Origin: an uncultured cyanobacterium
Lineage (GTDB): Bacteria > Cyanobacteriota > Cyanobacteriia > Cyanobacteriales > CAWCAG01
Direction: 5' to 3'
Length of the DNA: 64,000 nucleotides
NCBI GenBank assembly: GCA_963803805.1
Contig: CAWDOD010000003.1
Coordinates: forward strand, 256,001 to 320,000
Shown here: piece after piece, positions 1 through 7,749 of the stretch
How the letters are laid out: each line of letters begins with the position of its first letter
Position numbering within the stretch: the first letter of the stretch is position 1
Notes under the pieces: generated by a model
Seen by the model: the letters and a program-made list of their open reading frames with translations, nothing else
Told to the model about the DNA's origin: nothing
Database searches by the model: none
Translations under genes and position numbers: made by a program

Positions 1-860
1 AATCCTGCACACAAAATTACCCGATCATAAACTAAATCCTCAATCTCTCCATTGGCATGGGTGTAATCGAAAGTAACCACATACTTACCATCGTCTTGAG
101 GCTTGATTTCTAAGACTTTGGCATCAAGAACCACATTTTGGGACTTGAGTTGATAAGTATCGAGGAAGTTATTATTAACCGCCCGCAAATGGCCGACATA
201 CTTAGTTTTCCAAGCCATGGAAACAGGATTAGGACTAACAATATGGGTTAAAGCGGTGGTTCCCATTAAATGTTCTGCTGTCTCAAACCCTGAGTTTCCT
301 TTACCAATAATCAGTACTTTCTCATTGGCAAAATCTTCTGGATCTAAGGAGACATCGGTATAGTTTTCTGCAAACTCAATACCAGGAACATCAGGAACAT
401 AGGGCTTAGCGAAGCCTGTAGCCACAATCAAATGCTGACAAGAGTAAACGTTGCCGTTGCTATCAATAACTAAAAAGCCATCATTTTTAGCAATCCTAAC
501 TACCTCAACGCCATATTTAATCTTGAGTTGGTAGTAGCTAGCAAAATCATCAAGATATTTGAGGAGATCCTGGGCATCAGGTAAGTAGCTGCGGCTGTAG
601 TTTTTGAACAGCAAATCAGGATTGTCACTTAGTAAAGAATTCCAATCCCAGCGTAGGTTGATTTCTGGATCGTCATAACCAGTATGTACTTTGTTAATGG
701 AGATTAAAGTTCTATGGCGGGGAAGGGCTTTGAAGGTATGTCCAGGGTTTTCCCCTGCTTCTAGAATCAAATAATCTCGGTTAGCTTTCTCCAAGAAATA
801 GCCAAGTTGTAGCCCAGCAGGGCCAGCACCGATAATGATGTAATCCAGTTGTTTAAGCAT
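1..860 (-). CDS. FAD/NAD(P)-dependent oxidoreductase, FOXRED2-like (3' end beyond left window edge)
   Basis: Missing from the ORF track; translated by hand from ATG at 860: MLKQLDYIIIGAGPAGLQLGYFLEKANRDYLILEAG...PRHRTLISINK...NLRWDWNSLLSD...VATG...VLIIGKGNSGFETAE...YVGHLRAVNNNFLDTYQLKSQ. It has two Rossmann motifs, and these blocks match the FOXRED2 family as I remember it. Confidence 0.85.
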   Translation of the reverse strand, partial: MLKQLDYIIIGAGPAGLQLGYFLEKANRDYLILEAGENPGHTFKALPRHRTLISINKVHTGYDDPEINLRWDWNSLLSDNPDLLFKNYSRSYLPDAQDLLKYLDDFASYYQLKIKYGVEVVRIAKNDGFLVIDSNGNVYSCQHLIVATGFAKPYVPDVPGIEFAENYTDVSLDPEDFANEKVLIIGKGNSGFETAEHLMGTTALTHIVSPNPVSMAWKTKYVGHLRAVNNNFLDTYQLKSQNVVLDAKVLEIKPQDDGKYVVTFDYTHANGEIEDLVYDRVILCAG

Positions 861-1144
861 AATTGTCAGATGTTGTAGACTAGGCTCTGATGAATGGAAG
901 ACGTTAAGTTAGCTCAATAAGATTTTTCTCGCAGCCAACAATTTAGCTATGACTTGCTAATTGTTGTCAGATGTGGATTGTCACCTGGATATTTTGGTTT
1001 GGATTAGTTCGATAAAAAACGAGAAAATTTATTTGAGTTGGCTATAAGTCTAAAAGGTAAATGTTTTCCTAAGTGTTTGCGTAACGTATATTTTTAGGCT
1101 TGCTTTGTATATTTTAGTGTTTGTTTTTCTCCTAAGCTGAAACC

Positions 1145-1182
1145 AAAAAAACCCAGGCAGAGTAAGCAAACTCCAGGCTGGG
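1145..1182 (-). terminator. possible intrinsic terminator after the second AetD-like gene
   Basis: Imperfect stem CCCAG..GAGT / ACTC..CTGGG followed by a T-run on the minus strand. Confidence 0.35.
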
Positions 1183-1236
1183 CTTAGTTTGAAAGTAGGA
1201 ATTTTACTACCTTCGGAAATTAATTTGCAAAAAATA

Positions 1237-1959
1237 TCAAGAAAGACAGGGTAATGGCAAAGCCTGACTTTTTTGGGCAAAGGCTAACAACTCTTGGGTT
1301 AACTCAGTGAAAATAGCAAAAACCCTCTCTACCAATTCAAAAGCTTTAGTCCTACTTTGGGCCGATAGCTGAACACTCTCTAAAACAGTTTCTATGTTAT
1401 CTACACCCGTCAGGTGTCCTGTCTCAAAACTTAGGTGAAAATGTCCGAAGTAACGATAGTCTTGCTTGGTAATTTCTTTTAATTCTTGGGTAACTGTAGC
1501 AGTATTGCTAAACATCACAACACCTGCTGCTTCAATAGCTTCACTAACTGCTAGCTTGATGTTGATATCGAGTTTTTCTGCTTCAAAGATACACTGTTCC
1601 AGTAAATGGGAAACACGACGGGCAACTTTAGTCTCTTCTCCCCAAAGAAAAGCCAAAGTTGCGTTCATATCTTGCTTTTGGTTGAAGCCGAGTTTGTCTA
1701 AATCTTCTAGAAACCAACGCCAGTGGCGTTCATCTTCGTAGGTATGATTGTTAATCAGTTGCTGAATGTGATTTTGGTTAGATTCCTGGCGCAATACATA
1801 CTTGTTAAGATCGCTAAAATCCATGATGAAAGGAGCAACACAAGGGGCAAAAGCTAGCCTTTTTTGGGGGCTAATACTTTTATCCTGGAGATATACCATA
1901 AGTGGTACATGGCTAAATTCCTGTTGCTTTTGGTTGATTAAGGCAAGAACTTCTTTCAT
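1237..1959 (-). CDS. AetD-like heme-oxygenase-like diiron oxidase (HDO), paralogue 2
   Basis: Probable start is ATG 1959 (MKEVLALINQKQQEF), giving 240 aa. Motifs NNHTYEDERHWRWF, SEAIEAAG and FHLSFETGH give the His/carboxylate pattern of AetD-type HDOs. Confidence 0.75.
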   Translation of the reverse strand: MKEVLALINQKQQEFSHVPLMVYLQDKSISPQKRLAFAPCVAPFIMDFSDLNKYVLRQESNQNHIQQLINNHTYEDERHWRWFLEDLDKLGFNQKQDMNATLAFLWGEETKVARRVSHLLEQCIFEAEKLDINIKLAVSEAIEAAGVVMFSNTATVTQELKEITKQDYRYFGHFHLSFETGHLTGVDNIETVLESVQLSAQSRTKAFELVERVFAIFTELTQELLAFAQKSQALPLPCLS

Positions 1960-2020
1960 GTTGATTCTGTTGTGTTCTAGGCTGTTTAGATTCAAAATAT
2001 TTACTTATTCAGCATTCCCA

Positions 2021-2071
2021 AAAAAAAGAGGCAGCAACCTAAATAATACTTGAGTATCCAGGTTGCTGCCT
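2021..2071 (-). terminator. Rho-independent terminator between the two AetD-like genes
   Basis: Perfect 12-bp stem AGGCAGCAACCT (2029-2040) / AGGTTGCTGCCT (2060-2071) followed by a T-run on the minus strand. Confidence 0.7.
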
Positions 2072-2102
2072 AAAGAGAGTATTTAATACTTAATCGCTTA
2101 AT

Positions 2103-2825
2103 TTAGTTAAGATGGGAAGACAGAACTTTTTGATTATTATTGGCGAAAGCTAGTAACTCGTGAGTTAGTTCTGTAAAGATATCAAAAACTCTCTCCACTA
2201 GTTCAAAAGCTTTGATTCTACTCTGTGGCGATAACTGAATATTCTCTAAAACAGTTTCTACGTTATCTGTCCCAGTTAAGTGTCCTGTTTCTAAATCCAA
2301 GTGAAAACGTCCGAAGTAACGGTAGTTTTTTTGCGTAATCTCTTGTAGTTCTTGAGCAACAGCAGTAGTGTTGCCAAACATAACTACTCCAGTTGCTTCA
2401 ATAGCTTCACTAACAACGATTCTCAAGTTAGGATCTGCTTGTTCTGCTTCTAGTAAACATTGTTCTAGTTGTTGACAAACATGACGGGAAACCCTGGTAT
2501 CTTTGCCCCAGAGAAACTTCAAAAGGTTACTCATCTTTTGTTCTCCATCGAAGCCTAATTTTTCTAAGTCTTCAATAAACCAATGCCAGTGGCGTTCATC
2601 TTCATGGGTATGCTTATTGATCAGTTTTTGGGCAGGAACAGAAGAAGATTCTTGACGTAAGACATATTTGTTAAAATGCCTAAATTCCATAGCAAAGGGA
2701 GCAATACAAGGGGCAAAGGCTAGCCTTCTTTCGGGACTAATACTTTGGTCTTGTAAGTAAGCCATTAAGGGCAATTGGCTAAATTCTTCTTTCTTTTGTT
2801 CAATAAAGCTAAGGACATCTTTCAT
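2103..2825 (-). CDS. AetD-like heme-oxygenase-like diiron oxidase (HDO), paralogue 1
   Basis: 240 aa, colinear with 1237-1959; motifs NKHTHEDERHWHWF, SEAIEATG, FHLDLETGH. Confidence 0.75.
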   Translation of the reverse strand: MKDVLSFIEQKKEEFSQLPLMAYLQDQSISPERRLAFAPCIAPFAMEFRHFNKYVLRQESSSVPAQKLINKHTHEDERHWHWFIEDLEKLGFDGEQKMSNLLKFLWGKDTRVSRHVCQQLEQCLLEAEQADPNLRIVVSEAIEATGVVMFGNTTAVAQELQEITQKNYRYFGRFHLDLETGHLTGTDNVETVLENIQLSPQSRIKAFELVERVFDIFTELTHELLAFANNNQKVLSSHLN

Positions 2826-2870
2826 AGAAATTATTACACCCCAATTGTGAAAATTTTCAAATCAATTCTT

Positions 2871-2898
2871 AGTATAGCGGGGGGGGGGAAATCGGCAA
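2871..2898 (-). promoter_or_regulatory. candidate sigma70-type promoter with poly-C(10) spacer
   Basis: The minus strand reads TTGCCG-atttCCCCCCCCCCgc (16 nt)-TATACT, about 45 bp upstream of the 2825 ATG. Confidence 0.5.
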
Positions 2899-3006
2899 GG
2901 GGTAATGGGTAATGGGTAATAAGTTAAGGGTAGGGCTTGCTGGAATTGTGGGATTTGAGTGAGCAATAATAAGTGATTTAATAATTAATTACTGAAAATT
3001 TAAGCG

Positions 3007-3162
3007 ATGGTGATTGGAACTATTTTAGGAACGGCTGGTGGGGCTTTAGTTGAGTCTTGTACGGAGGATATTTTCAAGAAGTTAGTTACAGAAAATGTTA
3101 ATAGTTATTTGAATGGAAATGACTTAACTAAAGCTTTGCAAACAGCTAATAATCCCTATTAG
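3007..3162 (+). pseudogene. 51-codon 5' gene fragment running into CRISPR repeat 1
   Basis: MVIGTILGTAGGALVESCTEDIFKKLVTENVNSYLNGNDLTKALQTANNPY*; the last codons and the stop are supplied by the repeat. Confidence 0.45.
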
Positions 3163-3184
3163 GGATTGAAACATGAAAATCAAT

Positions 3185-4326
3185 AGACATCTCCGAAAAA
3201 GAATCAAACTATGATAAAAGAAGATAAAATAGAATTTTTAACCAGAAATAATGAGTAAAATACTCGAATATATCCAGCAACATCCCAGAGAATCTCAGCG
3301 TTTAGTAGGTTTAAAATATGAACAGTTAGAAAAACTGCTCTCCAAGGCTATTGAACTAGAGGCTCAAAAACGAAAACTAGCGGAAGCTCAAAAAGTCAGA
3401 ATTATTGGCTCTGGAGGTGGTAGAAAAGCGAAACTATCTCCACCAGAACAAGTAATCCTAACCTTAACATATTTACGACACTTAACGACATTTCAGCTAC
3501 TAGGGATTCAGTTTGGTATTAGTGAAACAACTGCCAATAATATTTTTAACTATTGGTGTCCCCTAATAGGAGAATTATTACCAGCAAGTATCTATGAGCA
3601 GGTAAAAAAAACGAGTGTGACTATGAAATAGTCCAAGAGATGTTAGCAGAGTTCGAGTTAATTGTAGATAGCTATGAGCAGCCCATCGAAAGACCTGGAG
3701 AGTATGAAGAGCAGAAAAAGTATTACTCAGGTAAAAAAGCTAATCACACAAGAAAAACTCAAGTAATTGTTTTACCAAAAGGTCAATCTGGTCGTCGATG
3801 TTGAAGCGGGTTTACCGGGTCCAAAAAGTGATATCAAAATATTTAGGGAAACGAAAACAAAATTTAGTGAGCAGCAAAGATTTAGGGGAGATAAAGCTTA
3901 TCAAGGAGACAAATCAACGACAACGCCTCTGAAAAAGCCGAGAAAAAAACAACTAAATGCTCAAGAAAAACAAATAAATAAAGAGCTAGCTAAGGAGCGA
4001 ATATTCGTAGAACATTTAATTAGATTAATTAAGATATTTAGAGTAGCTAGTGAAAGATTCAGATTAAATTCCCATAAATATGAGCAGGTAGTTACGACAA
4101 TTTGTGGGTTAGTGAGATTAAGAATTGGTACTTCTGTGTTTTAGTGAAGATATATCTGCCCTTGCCCTTGGCAAATAACTATCTAATTAGAGCTATCTTT
4201 TTGTTAGTTATGGGTAGTAGCTTTCTCAAATACTTATTAAACCGTAGAATAGAGCTATCTTTGGGTCAAGGCAACTGCCATCTCAAAGACTGTACTGTAT
4301 AACTTTGGCTATTTCCGGAGAGGTCT
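3185..4326 (+). mobile_element. IS5-family (ISL2/IS702-like) insertion sequence, 1142 bp
   Basis: Terminal inverted repeats AGACATCTCCGAAAAAG and (rc) AGACCTCTCCGGAAATAG; 3-bp duplication AAT at 3182-3184 and 4327-4329; encodes an HTH + DDE transposase. Confidence 0.9.
3251..4144 (+). pseudogene. IS5-family transposase with A8 slippery site plus a second, probably inactivating, frameshift
   Basis: HTH_Tnp_4-like ORF 3251-3631. A -1 shift at A8 (3604-3611) gives LIVDSYEQPIERP..YYSGKK..HTRKTQVIVLPKGQ, which stops shortly after 3787. The DDE tail (GPKSDI, GDKAYQG, ERIFVEH) is in another frame. Confidence 0.8.
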
Positions 4327-4456
4327 AATCTAAAGAAAAAGCAAATACAAATGTTGCAACAGCTAATAATCCCTATTAGGGATTGAAACAACAGGAAAGT
4401 AAGCGCCAACATTCTTAAGCAAAGGTTGCAGCTTAAAGTACATTGACAGATAGCAA

Positions 4457-5476
4457 TCAAAAAATAAATATCTTATCCAAAGTCTCTTTCTGCAAACCAA
4501 CCACCGTAGGTTGAGGTAAACCGGGTAACAGTTGTAAATCAAACAACTCAGTACAACCTGAATCAAACCGAAGAAAGCCAACAGTTTCACCAGAGTGAAT
4601 ATTCACCACCACCACAGCGCATTGCAGCTCTTTTTCCCTCTCTTGCAGGGGCAAACCACCAAAGATTTTTTTCTCCCTAATTTGTGACAAACCAATAAAG
4701 CCATAACATCCGTAGAAAGCCAACCCCCTGGTAAATCCCGGCAACTCTGCTACAGTAGTACTTTGCCCCGTATAAAGATCCACCCTGACTAAATGCCCCC
4801 GCCCAGAATCTAGCAACCACAAACCACCATCATAAAACCGGGGAGAATGGGGCATGGCGAAACCCCGTGCTACAATTTCTCCACTAGGTATATCAATCAA
4901 GCAACCTCCTCCTACCTTGCCTTCCCGCCAGCCTCTAGGGGTATCCGTATCTCCCAAAGCTGTCACAAACTTAGGCTTTCCTCCCAAAAGTGCTAAACCA
5001 TTGAGATGACAGCGATCTTCTGCTTGCAAACTACTGATGAATAGTGGTTTCCACTGAGGTACAAAATTAAACTCTGGACTCAAAGTACATAAACAAGAAA
5101 ATCGAGTATTTACTACCCACAACTCCTCCCCAACCCAAGCTATCTCATGGACACGAATATCTCCTGTCACATAACAATGGCGGGGGACAAAACAGGCATC
5201 GTATTCTCGATTTGGTTCAACTTTGTTAGCAATTCCTGGTACATTGGCTAAAAACCAAACTTGCTTGCGAGTTCCTATAGCTAGGCGGTGAGGTTGCAAA
5301 GCTAACCCCATAACCTTTTTAAAGCTACGTAGCAAAGTGACTAGCTGACCATTTTCTGACCTCACTACCATTAGCTTCCCGGCTTGGTAAGTAGAAATAA
5401 ACAGGGAAAGGTTCAGGTTGGCTAAAAGTTCAGGAAAACCACCAGAGTGAACATAGCTAATCTTATTATTAGTCAT
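4457..5476 (-). CDS. TIGR03032 / DUF4915 family protein
   Basis: STYQAGKL, TGDIRVHE, VNTRFSCL, EDRCHLNGLA, MPHSPR and PGFTRGL motifs; likely start ATG 5476. Confidence 0.85.
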   Translation of the reverse strand: MTNNKISYVHSGGFPELLANLNLSLFISTYQAGKLMVVRSENGQLVTLLRSFKKVMGLALQPHRLAIGTRKQVWFLANVPGIANKVEPNREYDACFVPRHCYVTGDIRVHEIAWVGEELWVVNTRFSCLCTLSPEFNFVPQWKPLFISSLQAEDRCHLNGLALLGGKPKFVTALGDTDTPRGWREGKVGGGCLIDIPSGEIVARGFAMPHSPRFYDGGLWLLDSGRGHLVRVDLYTGQSTTVAELPGFTRGLAFYGCYGFIGLSQIREKKIFGGLPLQEREKELQCAVVVVNIHSGETVGFLRFDSGCTELFDLQLLPGLPQPTVVGLQKETLDKIFIF

Positions 5477-5626
5477 TGCTTGGTAATCATTAATAATAAT
5501 TAATAAAACTGCCCCAAGAGGTAGGGGCAAAATTATTTTCTTCGTATATGCTTATAAATACGGATATATTATCTCGAAAAGCAAAAACTACTACTTTATT
5601 TTGATTAATTAAGGAACTAATTAGCC

Positions 5627-5881
5627 ATGCAAGACGATGAATCCTTATCTGAGTTTGAGCAACCTAAAGACTATATCCCTATAGAAGAACATTCTGCTTT
5701 GCAGTTTGCTGAAAGGGAAGCTAAAGTCTCTGAAGCTATCCAACCGTCCCAAGAAGGAAGAGTTAAATTTCAAGGTAGTGAGTGGTCTGCAAAATGCTTA
5801 ACAAACGCCACCTTGCTTCCTGGTAGAATGGTTAAGGTTATTGGGGTTCAAAGTAATACTTTGGTGGTAGAACCACAATAG
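5627..5881 (+). CDS. NfeD-like C-terminal (OB-fold) protein
   Basis: GRVKFQGSEWSA...VKVIGVQSNTLVVEP. Confidence 0.8.
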   Translation: MQDDESLSEFEQPKDYIPIEEHSALQFAEREAKVSEAIQPSQEGRVKFQGSEWSAKCLTNATLLPGRMVKVIGVQSNTLVVEPQ

Positions 5882-5968: not shown

Positions 5969-7411
5969 ATGAGTTTCTTTGACAAACTGAACACGGCGAT
6001 CGCGCTTCATCAAACTTTGCTGGTTGCAGCACTCGATCCCAACCCAGAAATGATGCCCAAGTTTCAGGGTAGTCAAAGCGATTCTGAGCAATTCCTAGAG
6101 AATTCAAGGGCATGGCTACTGGGGATTATTGCTGCCACCTCAAACCATGTCTGCGCTTACAAGCCTACCCTCGGCTTTTACACAGCTTTAGGGGGGCAAG
6201 GATGGGAACTACTTAGGGAAGTCCTTGCTGCGGTTCCGGACCATCTACCCATCATATTAGATGCTAAACATGGTGATCTCAACACCAGCAGTATGTTTGC
6301 CCAGACTATCTTTCAGGAGTGGCAAGTAGATGCTGTTACCATTACCCCCTACGCAGGACAAGATACCGCCGTACCTTTCTTGTTATACTCAGATAAAGCT
6401 GTCTTTGTCCTTTGCCACACTTCCAATCCTGCTGCTGTCCCCCTACAAGAATATAACCACAATGACAAGCCCTTTTACCTGCGAGTAGTAGAAGAAGTAG
6501 AAACTTGGGGAACCCAAGAACAACTATGCTTAGAAGTTGGTTCCCATCTCCGGGATGTATTTGCTAAAGTTCGCTCAGTCGCCCCAGAAAGAATCATTTT
6601 AGCCCGCAGTATTTGGGCAGAAGAGACAAGTTTAAATGAAATTATTGCTGCTGGCTTAAATAAAAATGGGGAAGGATTATTAATTCCTATACCTCAAGAC
6701 TTATTAGCACAAGAAAACCTCACCCAAAAGGTTGCATCTCTTCAGAAAAAGGTCAATGAAATCAGACAAACAGTTATTCAAGAAGCTTCCAGTTGTGAAC
6801 TTTGGATGCCTGATGTTTGTTTATTAAATCAGCATCCCTATCAAGATTTGGTCTTGCAACTATATGATCTTGGTTGTATTCTTTTTGGAGATTATGTACA
6901 AGCTTCAGGAGCAACTTTTTCTTATTATGTAGACTTGCGTAAAATCATTTCTAAACCTCAAATCTTCCAACAGGTTCTTAATGCCTACGCAGATATTCTC
7001 AAAAACTTAAACTTTGACCGCATTGCCGGCATTCCCTACGGTTCTTTGCCCACAGCAACCGGTTTATCTCTGCGTCTCAACTACCCGATGATTTTCCCTC
7101 GCAAAGAAGCCAAAGCCCATGGTACAAGAAGATTGATTGAAGGTAACTTTCAACCAGGAGAAACCATTGTTGTTGTAGATGATATTTTAATCAGTGGTAA
7201 AAGCGCCATAGAAGGAGCAAATAAACTTAAATCAGGAGGATTAATTATTGAGGATATTGTGGTATTTATTGACCATGAAGGAGGCGTTAAAGATAGGCTC
7301 AAAGCTCAAGGCTATCGCGCCCATTCTGTCTTATCCATTTCTGATATTACCTCAACTCTTTACGAAGCAGGAAAAATCAATGAGGAACAGTATAGTCATT
7401 TCGTTGTTTAG
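5969..7411 (+). CDS. pyrFE: bifunctional OMP decarboxylase / orotate phosphoribosyltransferase
   Basis: N-terminal LDPNPE, AYKPTLGFY and ILDAKHGD; C-terminal PRTase YYVDLR, RKEAKAHG and VVVDDILISG. Confidence 0.9.
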   Translation: MSFFDKLNTAIALHQTLLVAALDPNPEMMPKFQGSQSDSEQFLENSRAWLLGIIAATSNHVCAYKPTLGFYTALGGQGWELLREVLAAVPDHLPIILDAKHGDLNTSSMFAQTIFQEWQVDAVTITPYAGQDTAVPFLLYSDKAVFVLCHTSNPAAVPLQEYNHNDKPFYLRVVEEVETWGTQEQLCLEVGSHLRDVFAKVRSVAPERIILARSIWAEETSLNEIIAAGLNKNGEGLLIPIPQDLLAQENLTQKVASLQKKVNEIRQTVIQEASSCELWMPDVCLLNQHPYQDLVLQLYDLGCILFGDYVQASGATFSYYVDLRKIISKPQIFQQVLNAYADILKNLNFDRIAGIPYGSLPTATGLSLRLNYPMIFPRKEAKAHGTRRLIEGNFQPGETIVVVDDILISGKSAIEGANKLKSGGLIIEDIVVFIDHEGGVKDRLKAQGYRAHSVLSISDITSTLYEAGKINEEQYSHFVV

Positions 7412-7494: not shown

Positions 7495-7749
7495 TTAGTA
7501 GCATTCTACAATTAAGGTGATGTTATCAATTCCTACTACCCGAACTTTTCGCCCCGGTAGTATCGTTACATTTTGTAAGCATCTAGCAGGCCAATCACTA
7601 GCCCGAAAGTGAACTCTACCGATTTTGCTAGGAATAATCGTTTCTGCCACCTTGGCTTCTCTAGGTGCAAATCGGAAAACGGGATGTTTTTCTATGGGTA
7701 TATAGCTTTGATGTGGTGTTTTATGAAGGCGACGACTAGTAAGTTGCAT
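7495..7749 (-). CDS. NfeD-like C-terminal (OB-fold) protein
   Basis: GRVHFRASDWPA...VRVVGIDNITLIVE; paralogue of 5627-5881 (shared YIPIE.H..F..REAKV). Confidence 0.8.
   Translation of the reverse strand: MQLTSRRLHKTPHQSYIPIEKHPVFRFAPREAKVAETIIPSKIGRVHFRASDWPARCLQNVTILPGRKVRVVGIDNITLIVECY

Follow-up and report, generated by a model that had tools for sequence, protein, structure and literature searches.

We analyzed a stretch of 64,000 nucleotides from an uncultured cyanobacterium (G000:C3:256001-320000; the whole stretch is called the window). Its left end contains three genes, all of them read from the minus strand. Two of them encode paralogous heme-oxygenase-like diiron oxidases (HDOs) of the AetD/SktA family, here called HDO-1 and HDO-2. 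The third encodes a flavoprotein and runs across the window edge. The features of this region are as follows, with positions in the window.

2825..2103, minus strand: HDO-1, 240 aa, from the list of open reading frames (ORFs); AetD/SktA-family heme-oxygenase-like diiron oxidase
1959..1237, minus strand: HDO-2, 240 aa from the MKEV start, which is the one that all homologs use
1..860, minus strand: 5' 860 bases of the flavoprotein gene; ORF 860..3 is open at the window edge, with 286 aa visible
1960..2102, minus strand: spacer between HDO-1 and HDO-2, 143 bases
861..1236, minus strand: spacer between HDO-2 and the flavoprotein gene, 376 bases
2826..2902, minus strand: region upstream of HDO-1 that is common with a same-genus genome (blastn against L110); synteny stops at 2902

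The ORF of HDO-2 has an alternative start, a TTG at 1995 (1995..1237, 252 aa). The full-length flavoprotein has 525 aa (L002:1283-2860, minus strand), and 717 bases at the 3' end of its gene lie to the left of the window. HDO-1 and HDO-2 are 66% identical (155 of 234 residues) and are the sole two copies in their own genome.

The original prediction, an earlier reading of this DNA, had described two co-oriented 240-residue paralogs with HTxEDxxHW, EAIE and Hxxx-ETGH motifs and had likened them to AetD. All of these motifs are present on the minus strand: the two HDOs have HTHEDERHW / HTYEDERHW at residues 72-80, EAIE at 140-143 and H175-x3-ETGH182. The likeness to AetD is borne out as well and is well outside what chance would give. 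A phmmer search against all PDB chains retrieved AetD (8ji2, 8zvg, 8twn) with E-values of 1.3e-54 for HDO-1 and 3.1e-51 for HDO-2 over residues 1-227/228; the matches that came after AetD were all at E ≥0.3. Scans of both proteins with Pfam and NCBIfam gave no family at E ≤0.1, except for one chance-level NCBIfam match.

In the published account of AetD, the diiron ligands are D76, H79, E140, H172, E176 and H179, a set of three histidines and three carboxylates on three core helices (PMC11611611), while F44, F48 and Y167 contact the substrate by stacking on its indole or binding its carboxylate (PMC11611611, PMC10654658). The same accounts describe F48, a hydrophobic residue and not Glu on auxiliary helix 2, as the mark of the substrate-triggered type (PMC11611611, PMC10654658). 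Both HDOs contain the six ligands (D76, H79, E143, H175, E179, H182) and, as contacts to indole and carboxylate, F44, F48 and Y170, and these nine residues are invariant in 13 of 13 aligned family sequences, SktA included. Both proteins also have the combination found in the substrate-triggered type, a hydrophobic F48 together with F44 and Y170. On this sequence evidence HDO-1 and HDO-2 are HDOs of the AetD/SktA family. They presumably adopt the seven-helix heme-oxygenase-like fold, judging from an identity of about 40% to the solved AetD. Because all ligands and contacts are kept, both paralogs look catalytically complete.

The two proteins also carry changes that are specific to their clade, namely V147 (L in P0003) for the Asn of the family, HxEDERHW for HTYEDDHHW, and a 3-residue insertion. 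They differ from each other at position 145, which is T in HDO-1 and A in HDO-2; this is the site at which a 2026 review contrasts A142 of AetD with T142 of SktA (PMC13108848).

We placed the HDOs in a quick maximum-likelihood tree of 97 rows with Shimodaira-Hasegawa-like approximate likelihood-ratio (SH-aLRT) support. HDO-1 and HDO-2 group with P0002, P0003 and P0004 in a five-member clade that has a support of 100 and a long stem (0.45). This clade is separate from the clade of HDOs that are linked to SktB and SktC, the two other proteins of the sktABC cluster, and from the main clade of flavoprotein-linked HDOs; its deeper placement is weak (63). The SktB/C-linked HDOs form a single clade (SH-aLRT 96), and HDO-1 and HDO-2 are outside it. 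Each paralog pairs with its own ortholog, and the duplication is therefore older than that split; the HDO-2 ortholog P0004 is 86% identical according to the tree output. A common origin with the HDO tandems of Rivularia and Calothrix was considered and is unsupported, since each tandem consists of its own pair of sister clades and these join only at 63.

The original prediction had also placed a flavoprotein with two Rossmann motifs on the same strand. These motifs are GAGPAG at residues 11-16 and GKGNSG at 186-191, and they are kept in 18 of 18 family members. Two such dinucleotide motifs, first for FAD and then for NAD(P)H, are a feature of class B flavoprotein monooxygenases. Pyr_redox_3 covers residues 8-327 (E 7.3e-53), and the C-terminal 190 residues or so have no family. 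The best PDB matches are class B flavin monooxygenases with E-values of 1e-15 to 1e-11 (4a9w with 2.4e-15 in the profile search, 5nmw with 7e-12 for the single sequence, and 4usq, 4usr and phenylacetone monooxygenase). YpdA and ferredoxin-NADP reductases of the thioredoxin reductase (TrxR) type come next, at 1e-13 to 1e-10. The halogenase AetF is neither among all 57 PDB chains at E ≤0.01 nor among the 60 matches listed of 173 at E ≤1. For residues 205-525, a profile search retrieved no PDB chain at E ≤10. These searches agree with the earlier statement that the flavoprotein is unlike the AetF/AetA halogenases in sequence.

The motif FxGxxxHxxxY/F before the second Rossmann motif, which we take to identify flavin monooxygenases (FMOs), is not kept in the flavoprotein. 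The protein reads GIEFAENYTDVS at this place, with Tyr167 at the His position and Ser171 at the Tyr/Phe position, and both residues are invariant in its family. A comparison with SktC gave a local match of 127 residues (23% identity, E 1e-5), a comparison with SktB gave no match below E 1, and no recognised iron-sulfur motif was found in the flavoprotein. From these comparisons the flavoprotein is neither SktB, SktC nor AetF.

In the ESM-Atlas the nearest clusters are bacterial Pyr_redox_3 proteins of 500-590 aa, which are similar in length and have scores of 0.98-0.99. An entry named 'FAD-dependent oxidoreductase domain-containing protein 2' (FOXRED2) is found at rank 11 with a score of 0.98. 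The resemblance to FOXRED2 that had been noticed earlier is thus recovered as a lead, one that comes without alignment or E-value. Residues 335-525 alone retrieved only unnamed 'hypothetical protein' clusters of 141-198 aa. The C-terminal domain has the invariant residues C400, H473, E487, H489, E492, D493 and H503. An ortholog of the flavoprotein (P0145, 537 aa, 70% identical) is also present in Aetokthonos hydrillicola CCALA 1050, the toxin producer.

Next we analyzed the genomic surroundings of related genes. HDO relatives were found in 272 genome stretches, and the best 80 loci were analyzed. In 18 of the 80 the HDO gene is directly followed by a gene for the same flavoprotein (58-71% identical; 42% in one case), and three of these loci also have SktC after it. 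Scytonema sp. HK-05 and Aliinostoc are examples of related culturable strains with the HDO-flavoprotein pair. HDO, SktB and SktC occur together in 26 loci, while 29 are without any of the scored neighbors. Two HDO genes are present in seven loci; they are adjacent in six (Rivularia/Calothrix) and spaced in one (Microcoleus). The order HDO-HDO-flavoprotein occurs in none of the best 80 loci and is conserved in a genome of the same genus, G415.

The linkage was also approached via the flavoprotein and not the HDO, in 401 cyanobacterial genomes sampled phylum-wide and 401 from the window's own order. Matches were found in five of the former (E ≤1e-30) and eleven of the latter (E ≤1e-100), with the own genome counted in both. 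All seven flavoprotein orthologs of at least 66% identity (L086-L088, L093-L096) adjoin an HDO gene, which lies upstream or downstream and in some cases encodes a protein only 38-40% identical to HDO-1/HDO-2. Linkage of the flavoprotein to HDO genes in other genomes, which the original prediction had set as a check, is thus found in both surveys. The situation is different for flavoprotein paralogs of 39-58% identity, of which one in seven has an HDO-like neighbor within 6 kb. The other contexts of these paralogs are an amidohydrolase/radical-SAM/ATP-grasp cassette (twice), an amine oxidase with an FMO, and a CmlA-like diiron hydroxylase with a nonribosomal peptide synthetase (NRPS) domain.

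Two of these contexts are recorded here as observations in their own right. At L103:5009-11406 and L107:2089-7401 flavoprotein paralogs (58% and 45% identical) head a cassette with the order flavoprotein-Amidohydro_2-radical SAM-ATP-grasp, to which an O-methyltransferase is added at L103; this is an uncharacterised gene set that is conserved in two cyanobacterial genomes. At L109:5851-10771 the genes of a 39%-identical paralog and a CmlA-like diiron beta-hydroxylase are divergently oriented and 1.6 kb apart, with an NRPS condensation domain nearby; here, for a second time, the flavoprotein family is found beside a diiron oxygenase.

The original prediction did not foresee that the two proteins also occur as fusions. 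Among 18 relatives of HDO-1 that are longer than 420 aa, 15 are fusions of 810-932 aa, with the HDO at residues 1-228 and a whole-length flavoprotein, 61-69% identical, from about residue 245; P0121 (849 aa) is an example. The remaining three are a truncated HDO-flavoprotein fragment, a protein without a flavoprotein part, and P0134 (560 aa), in which the HDO is joined only to the C-terminal domain of the flavoprotein (residues 356-516) and a tail; P0134 suggests that the domain may accompany an HDO without the rest of the flavoprotein. The flavoprotein search listed further fusions in Acaryochloris sp. CCMEE 5410 and Pseudanabaena sp. PCC 6802; the fused form is found in Acaryochloris, Pseudanabaena and many metagenomic cyanobacteria. 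Several HDOs of 400-421 aa (P0087, P0098, P0114, P0124) and the long fusions have tails with weak matches to DUF4388/DUF2949.

To compare the conservation of the two partners we used 34 HDO-flavoprotein units, i.e. the 18 pairs, the own unit and the 15 fusions. In 506 of 561 pairs of units, conservation is higher for the flavoprotein than for its HDO partner, with a mean identity of 65.7% vs 52.3%. The flavoprotein has been kept by evolution beside such HDOs or joined to them.

The extent of the unit was determined by comparison with G415. Synteny covers window positions -4047 to 2902 only and includes the genes for a tetratricopeptide repeat (TPR) protein, an elongation factor G (EF-G)-like protein, the flavoprotein, HDO-2 and HDO-1. 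The genes are collinear at 89-90% nucleotide identity, and the proteins are 98% (flavoprotein), 87% (HDO-2) and 93% (HDO-1, over the part covered) identical. The ratios of nonsynonymous to synonymous substitution (dN/dS) against this genome are 0.050 for HDO-1, 0.101 for HDO-2 and 0.024 for the flavoprotein gene; all three genes are under purifying selection. To the left of the flavoprotein gene lie a convergent EF-G-like gene of 678 aa and then the TPR gene. The cluster had been expected to continue beyond the left edge of the window. This is true for the 717 bases of the flavoprotein gene and for nothing further; an extension past that gene is ruled out, because the convergent EF-G-like gene comes next. 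Upstream of HDO-1, G415 has genes for an MscS/cyclic nucleotide (cNMP) channel and a CHASE2 cyclase, where the window has two CRISPR-like repeats around an insertion sequence (IS) and then a DUF4915 gene. We also considered that the IS had displaced further genes of the cluster. This too is ruled out, since the genes that G415 has at this place are unrelated. Because synteny stops upstream of HDO-1 and the convergent EF-G-like gene bounds the other end, the unit consists of three genes only, with the flavoprotein gene at its leftward end.

Promoter-like and terminator-like sites in the region are not above their number in shuffled sequence (8 vs 8.6 and 3 vs 2.8). The same holds for promoter-like hexamers in the 143-base spacer between HDO-1 and HDO-2, which occur at the frequency of shuffled sequence, and for a promoter-like site at 2898-2871 upstream of HDO-1, which is not above chance. 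A contig from an RNA library (run X3) spans 725-995, i.e. the start and leader of the flavoprotein gene, with 3 differences in 271 bases. This one contig, in which DNA carry-over is possible, is weak evidence that the start and leader are transcribed. The RNA cover in this run is limited to 725-995 and, with the HDO genes uncovered, is uninformative on their expression. X1 is the DNA run in which the stretch is best represented. At 75-905 and 2640-2732 it yields not only identical contigs but also others of about 90-93% identity, which belong to a second variant; that sample therefore contained a closely related strain or species carrying these genes.

Several observations concern the DNA upstream of HDO-1. 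A perfect direct repeat of 33 bases (3141-3173 and 4358-4390) flanks the IS-like element. The core of this repeat matches, with at most 3 mismatches, CRISPR-like arrays at C2:78390-78680 (5 copies, about 72 bases apart) and C10:518893-519107 (4 copies), and a further single copy is found at C10:89541. The pair in the window resembles two orphan CRISPR repeats whose 'spacer' has received the IS. The IS transposase (3251-4144, plus strand) is split, probably by a frameshift or by decay, into an HTH_Tnp_4 ORF at 3251-3631 and an ORF at 3767-4144 that covers the C-terminal two-thirds of DDE_Tnp_4 (positions 41-157 of the 158 in the profile). Past the IS lies a gene for a DUF4915/TIGR03032 protein (4457-5530, minus strand; E 8e-126 / 3e-129), which is not syntenic with G415. 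It is followed by two similar ORFs of 84 aa in opposite orientation (5627-5881, plus strand; 7495-7749, minus strand), which bracket a 480-aa ORF at 5969-7411. According to the ORF list the two small ORFs have the motifs YIPIE.H, REAKV.E and GRV.F..S.W.A.CL.N.T.LPGR.V.V.G in common.

What could this unit do? The reading that we favor, tentatively and with something short of even confidence, is that HDO-1 and HDO-2 are tryptophan-fragmenting diiron oxidases and that the flavoprotein is their dedicated partner, most likely as a supplier of electrons from NAD(P)H. HDO-1 and HDO-2 would bind L-tryptophan or a ring-substituted tryptophan via its amino and carboxylate groups on Fe1 and, with O2, would fragment the 2-aminopropionate side chain to leave a small indole. 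The product could be skatole plus cyanide and CO2, as with SktA, or indole-3-carbonitrile, as with AetD. The flavoprotein would bind FAD and NAD(P)H, associate physically with the diiron enzyme and deliver two external electrons per turnover, which would bring the diferric cluster to the diferrous state. Such a supply would free the system from the general cellular reductant. We infer the substrate, the product, the physical contact in the unfused form and, above all, the role in electron supply.

Several considerations favor electron supply. The conversion of tryptophan to skatole, HCN and CO2 is a two-electron oxidation, O2 is a four-electron oxidant, and SktA was run with ascorbate. The flavoprotein is conserved regardless of the HDO subtype; the fact that it is more conserved than the HDO and accompanies HDOs that are only 38-40% identical to HDO-1/HDO-2 suggests a generic role and not a substrate-specific one. 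MboB is a precedent for a dedicated HDO redox partner. Finally, the fusion of an enzyme with its reductase is a common pattern, which again speaks for electron supply. In a more specific form of this proposal the flavoprotein would be a new class of NAD(P)H-driven HDO redox partner, separate here, where it would serve two HDOs, and fused elsewhere, with the C-terminal domain as a docking or electron-relay module. We regard this form as possible and hold it with slightly more doubt.

A number of findings weigh against the role in electron supply. Among solved structures, those closest to the flavoprotein are class B monooxygenases and not electron-transfer reductases, even though TrxR-type ferredoxin-NADP reductases match as well at about 1e-10. 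The flavoprotein is without an iron-sulfur center or another obvious one-electron carrier, unlike MboB. It is absent from 62 of the 80 best loci, and SktA is active with ascorbate. The 39-58% identical paralogs sit in other contexts that look biosynthetic. The HDO clade has active-site changes of its own (V147 for Asn, the 3-residue insertion). Lastly, in the loci L033, L051, L075 and L086 the flavoprotein gene lies between the HDO and an SktC-like monooxygenase, which is the slot of the SktB halogenase in skt loci.

Some of these findings would be explained if the flavoprotein were a tailoring enzyme, either a class B monooxygenase or an AetF/Bmp5-like halogenase, that modifies tryptophan ahead of the HDO, in place of SktB, or oxidizes the indole that the HDO releases. 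In that case each fusion would join two successive enzymes for channeling. We consider this the main alternative and a serious possibility, although not a probable one. It agrees with the best PDB match (4a9w, 2.4e-15), with the biosynthetic contexts of the paralogs and with the four loci that repeat the SktA-SktB-SktC layout, the flavoprotein taking the place of the halogenase; in the tree, the HDOs of HDO-flavoprotein-SktC loci adjoin the SktB/C-linked clade. The own genome is without a true tryptophan halogenase: searches with PF04820 gave only partial matches of 21-26 bits, similar to those in 6 of 14 control genomes, and tblastn with SktB (from L053) found nothing at E ≤1e-3. A further parallel is that AetF, the partner of AetD, is itself described as an FMO-like single-component halogenase whose relation to other FMOs is not picked up by sequence searches (PMC10306068).

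The tailoring role is opposed by the flavoprotein sequence itself. The FMO signature given above is not kept, Y167 and S171 being invariant instead, and AetF is missing from the 57 PDB chains at E ≤0.01, just as the profile of residues 205-525 found no chain. Moreover, the flavoprotein remains 61-71% identical while its HDO partners fall to 38-50%, which would be unusual for a substrate-specific tailoring enzyme.

A second alternative concerns the HDOs. They may use a substrate other than tryptophan or yield a third kind of product, and the paralogs may split the work between two substrates, two successive oxidations, or the catalytic and structural subunits of a heterodimer. The long, fully supported stem of the clade of five sets it off from both the SktB/C-linked clade and the main clade of flavoprotein-linked HDOs, the changes of the five (V147, HxEDERHW, the insertion) are near the active-site helix, and HDO-1 and HDO-2 differ (T145 vs A145) at the A142/T142 site. 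In addition, AetD is reported to be dimeric in solution (PMC11611611), and AetD and SktA are reported to give different products from near-identical substrates (PMC13108848). Against this, F44, F48 and Y170 are invariant, all six ligands are present in both paralogs so that neither resembles a dead subunit, and both are under purifying selection. We consider it unlikely. That the flavoprotein gene is a chance neighbor with a housekeeping role, e.g. as a thioredoxin reductase or a K+-transport flavoprotein, is very improbable: source annotations of that kind ('thioredoxin reductase', 'putative flavoprotein involved in K+ transport') and the 376-base gap to HDO-2 agree with it, but all seven orthologs are HDO-adjacent, 15 natural fusions exist, and a gene that is found in only 5 of 401 and 11 of 401 sampled cyanobacterial genomes is not a housekeeping gene.

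The enzyme family and small skt-like loci are already known; the pairing or fusion with the flavoprotein was not found in the literature searched. Published accounts describe AetD and SktA, which are new to enzymology, as single diiron proteins that convert tryptophan to an indole nitrile or to skatole and cyanide (PMC11611611, PMC11869266); in vitro both depend on ascorbate. A physiological electron source for these enzymes is not described in the AetD/SktA literature examined, and a literature search of incomplete coverage returned no publication on an HDO-Pyr_redox_3 pair or fusion or on tandem HDO pairs. The locus, its relatives and the fusions point to one uncharacterised flavoprotein as the natural companion of the HDO family, a proposal open to direct test with NAD(P)H and just three proteins. 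A reductase function would make the flavoprotein a second type of dedicated redox partner for HDOs, next to MboB, and would open a way to self-sufficient biocatalysts. As a redox-partner class it would provide the missing physiological reductant of the AetD/SktA family, self-sufficient catalysts from tryptophan to skatole or nitrile, and a hint at the role of FOXRED2. A halogenase or oxygenase function would mean a new family of tailoring enzymes for tryptophan-derived metabolites. The tandem paralogs are a natural experiment on what steers the product outcome, and the data suggest that volatile indoles and cyanide may come from more cyanobacteria than the studied Nostoc strains.

Among systems with a known function we compared the unit with the mangotoxin, aetokthonotoxin and skt enzymes. 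FOXRED2 (ERFAD) and the bacterial 500-590-aa Pyr_redox_3 group are nearest to the flavoprotein by learned features only, without alignment, and give no mechanism; to our knowledge no enzymatic function has been established for this group. MboA-MboB from the mangotoxin pathway is described as the first reported dedicated pair of HDO and redox partner (JACS 2026, PMC13185094). As in the unit here, a flavoprotein (MboB) is encoded beside an HDO (MboA). MboB is NAD(P)H-dependent and is needed by MboA for turnover, the role that is proposed for the flavoprotein here. MboB is, however, described as a flavin and Fe2S2 reductase, whereas the flavoprotein here is of the two-Rossmann FAD/NAD(P)H Pyr_redox_3 type with a C-terminal domain of 190 residues.

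AetD, the nitrile synthase of the aetokthonotoxin pathway (PDB 8ji2, 8twn, 8tww), is homologous to both HDOs over the whole length, with about 40% identity as read off the alignments. It has the common set of three histidines and three carboxylates, F44, F48 and the carboxylate-binding Tyr. V147 of the HDOs is hydrophobic like L144 of AetD, where SktA-like proteins have Asn; S214 of AetD, which contacts the 7-bromine, is Phe at the same site in HDO-1 and HDO-2. AetF, the single-component, FMO-like halogenase that supplies the substrate of AetD, is recognized in its published description by the position of Lys258 and by a tunnel that links the flavin with a distinct site for the substrate (PMC10306068). 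AetF and Bmp5 likewise have two dinucleotide-binding domains and FMO-like PDB relatives, yet AetF gives no sequence match to the flavoprotein in the PDB searches above. An aet cluster combines AetD with the halogenases AetF and AetA, the P450 AetB and the tryptophanase AetE. Among the neighbors examined (TPR, EF-G-like, IS, DUF4915) none resembles a further aet gene, and they contain no P450 or tryptophanase domain; AetF, AetA, AetB and AetE were not queried against the genome.

The closest characterised relative is the SktA protein of Nostoc punctiforme NIES-2108, being 49.6% identical to both paralogs over 232 residues and of the same family and length. SktA, an oxygen-dependent skatole synthase, converts 5-bromo-L-tryptophan, and also tryptophan, to (5-bromo)skatole, cyanide and bicarbonate in an assay with Fe(II) and ascorbate (PMC11869266). 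Its gene belongs to the three-gene cluster sktABC, with SktB a halogenase and SktC an untested FMO (Adak et al., JACS 2025, PMC11869266), and homologs of SktA occur in varied genomic contexts with a function that is not known (PMC11869266). The SktA sequence used here is the first ORF of locus L053, which is the same as the sequence in the supplement of the SktA paper (PMC11869266). Its ligand and indole-contact residues are identical to those of HDO-1 and HDO-2, and its F214 is at the position of F217; it differs in having Asn at position 147, where the HDOs have Val and the 3-residue insertion. SktB is absent from the locus. So is SktC, for which a search of the own genome gave only a 40-residue Rossmann match on another contig. 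The likeness to AetD stated in the original prediction is thus real, although SktA is the closer match. The skt locus and the unit described here are alike in being small and cyanobacterial and in having a flavoenzyme gene immediately downstream of the HDO gene; they differ in that two tandem HDOs take the place of one SktA and in that the downstream flavoenzyme comes from another family. The original prediction had proposed a new pathway, distinct from that of aetokthonotoxin, with two HDOs and a flavin oxidoreductase. The gene content is as proposed. Since SktA is the closest characterised relative, however, the locus appears from these comparisons to be a variation on skt-type loci already published rather than an unprecedented pathway.

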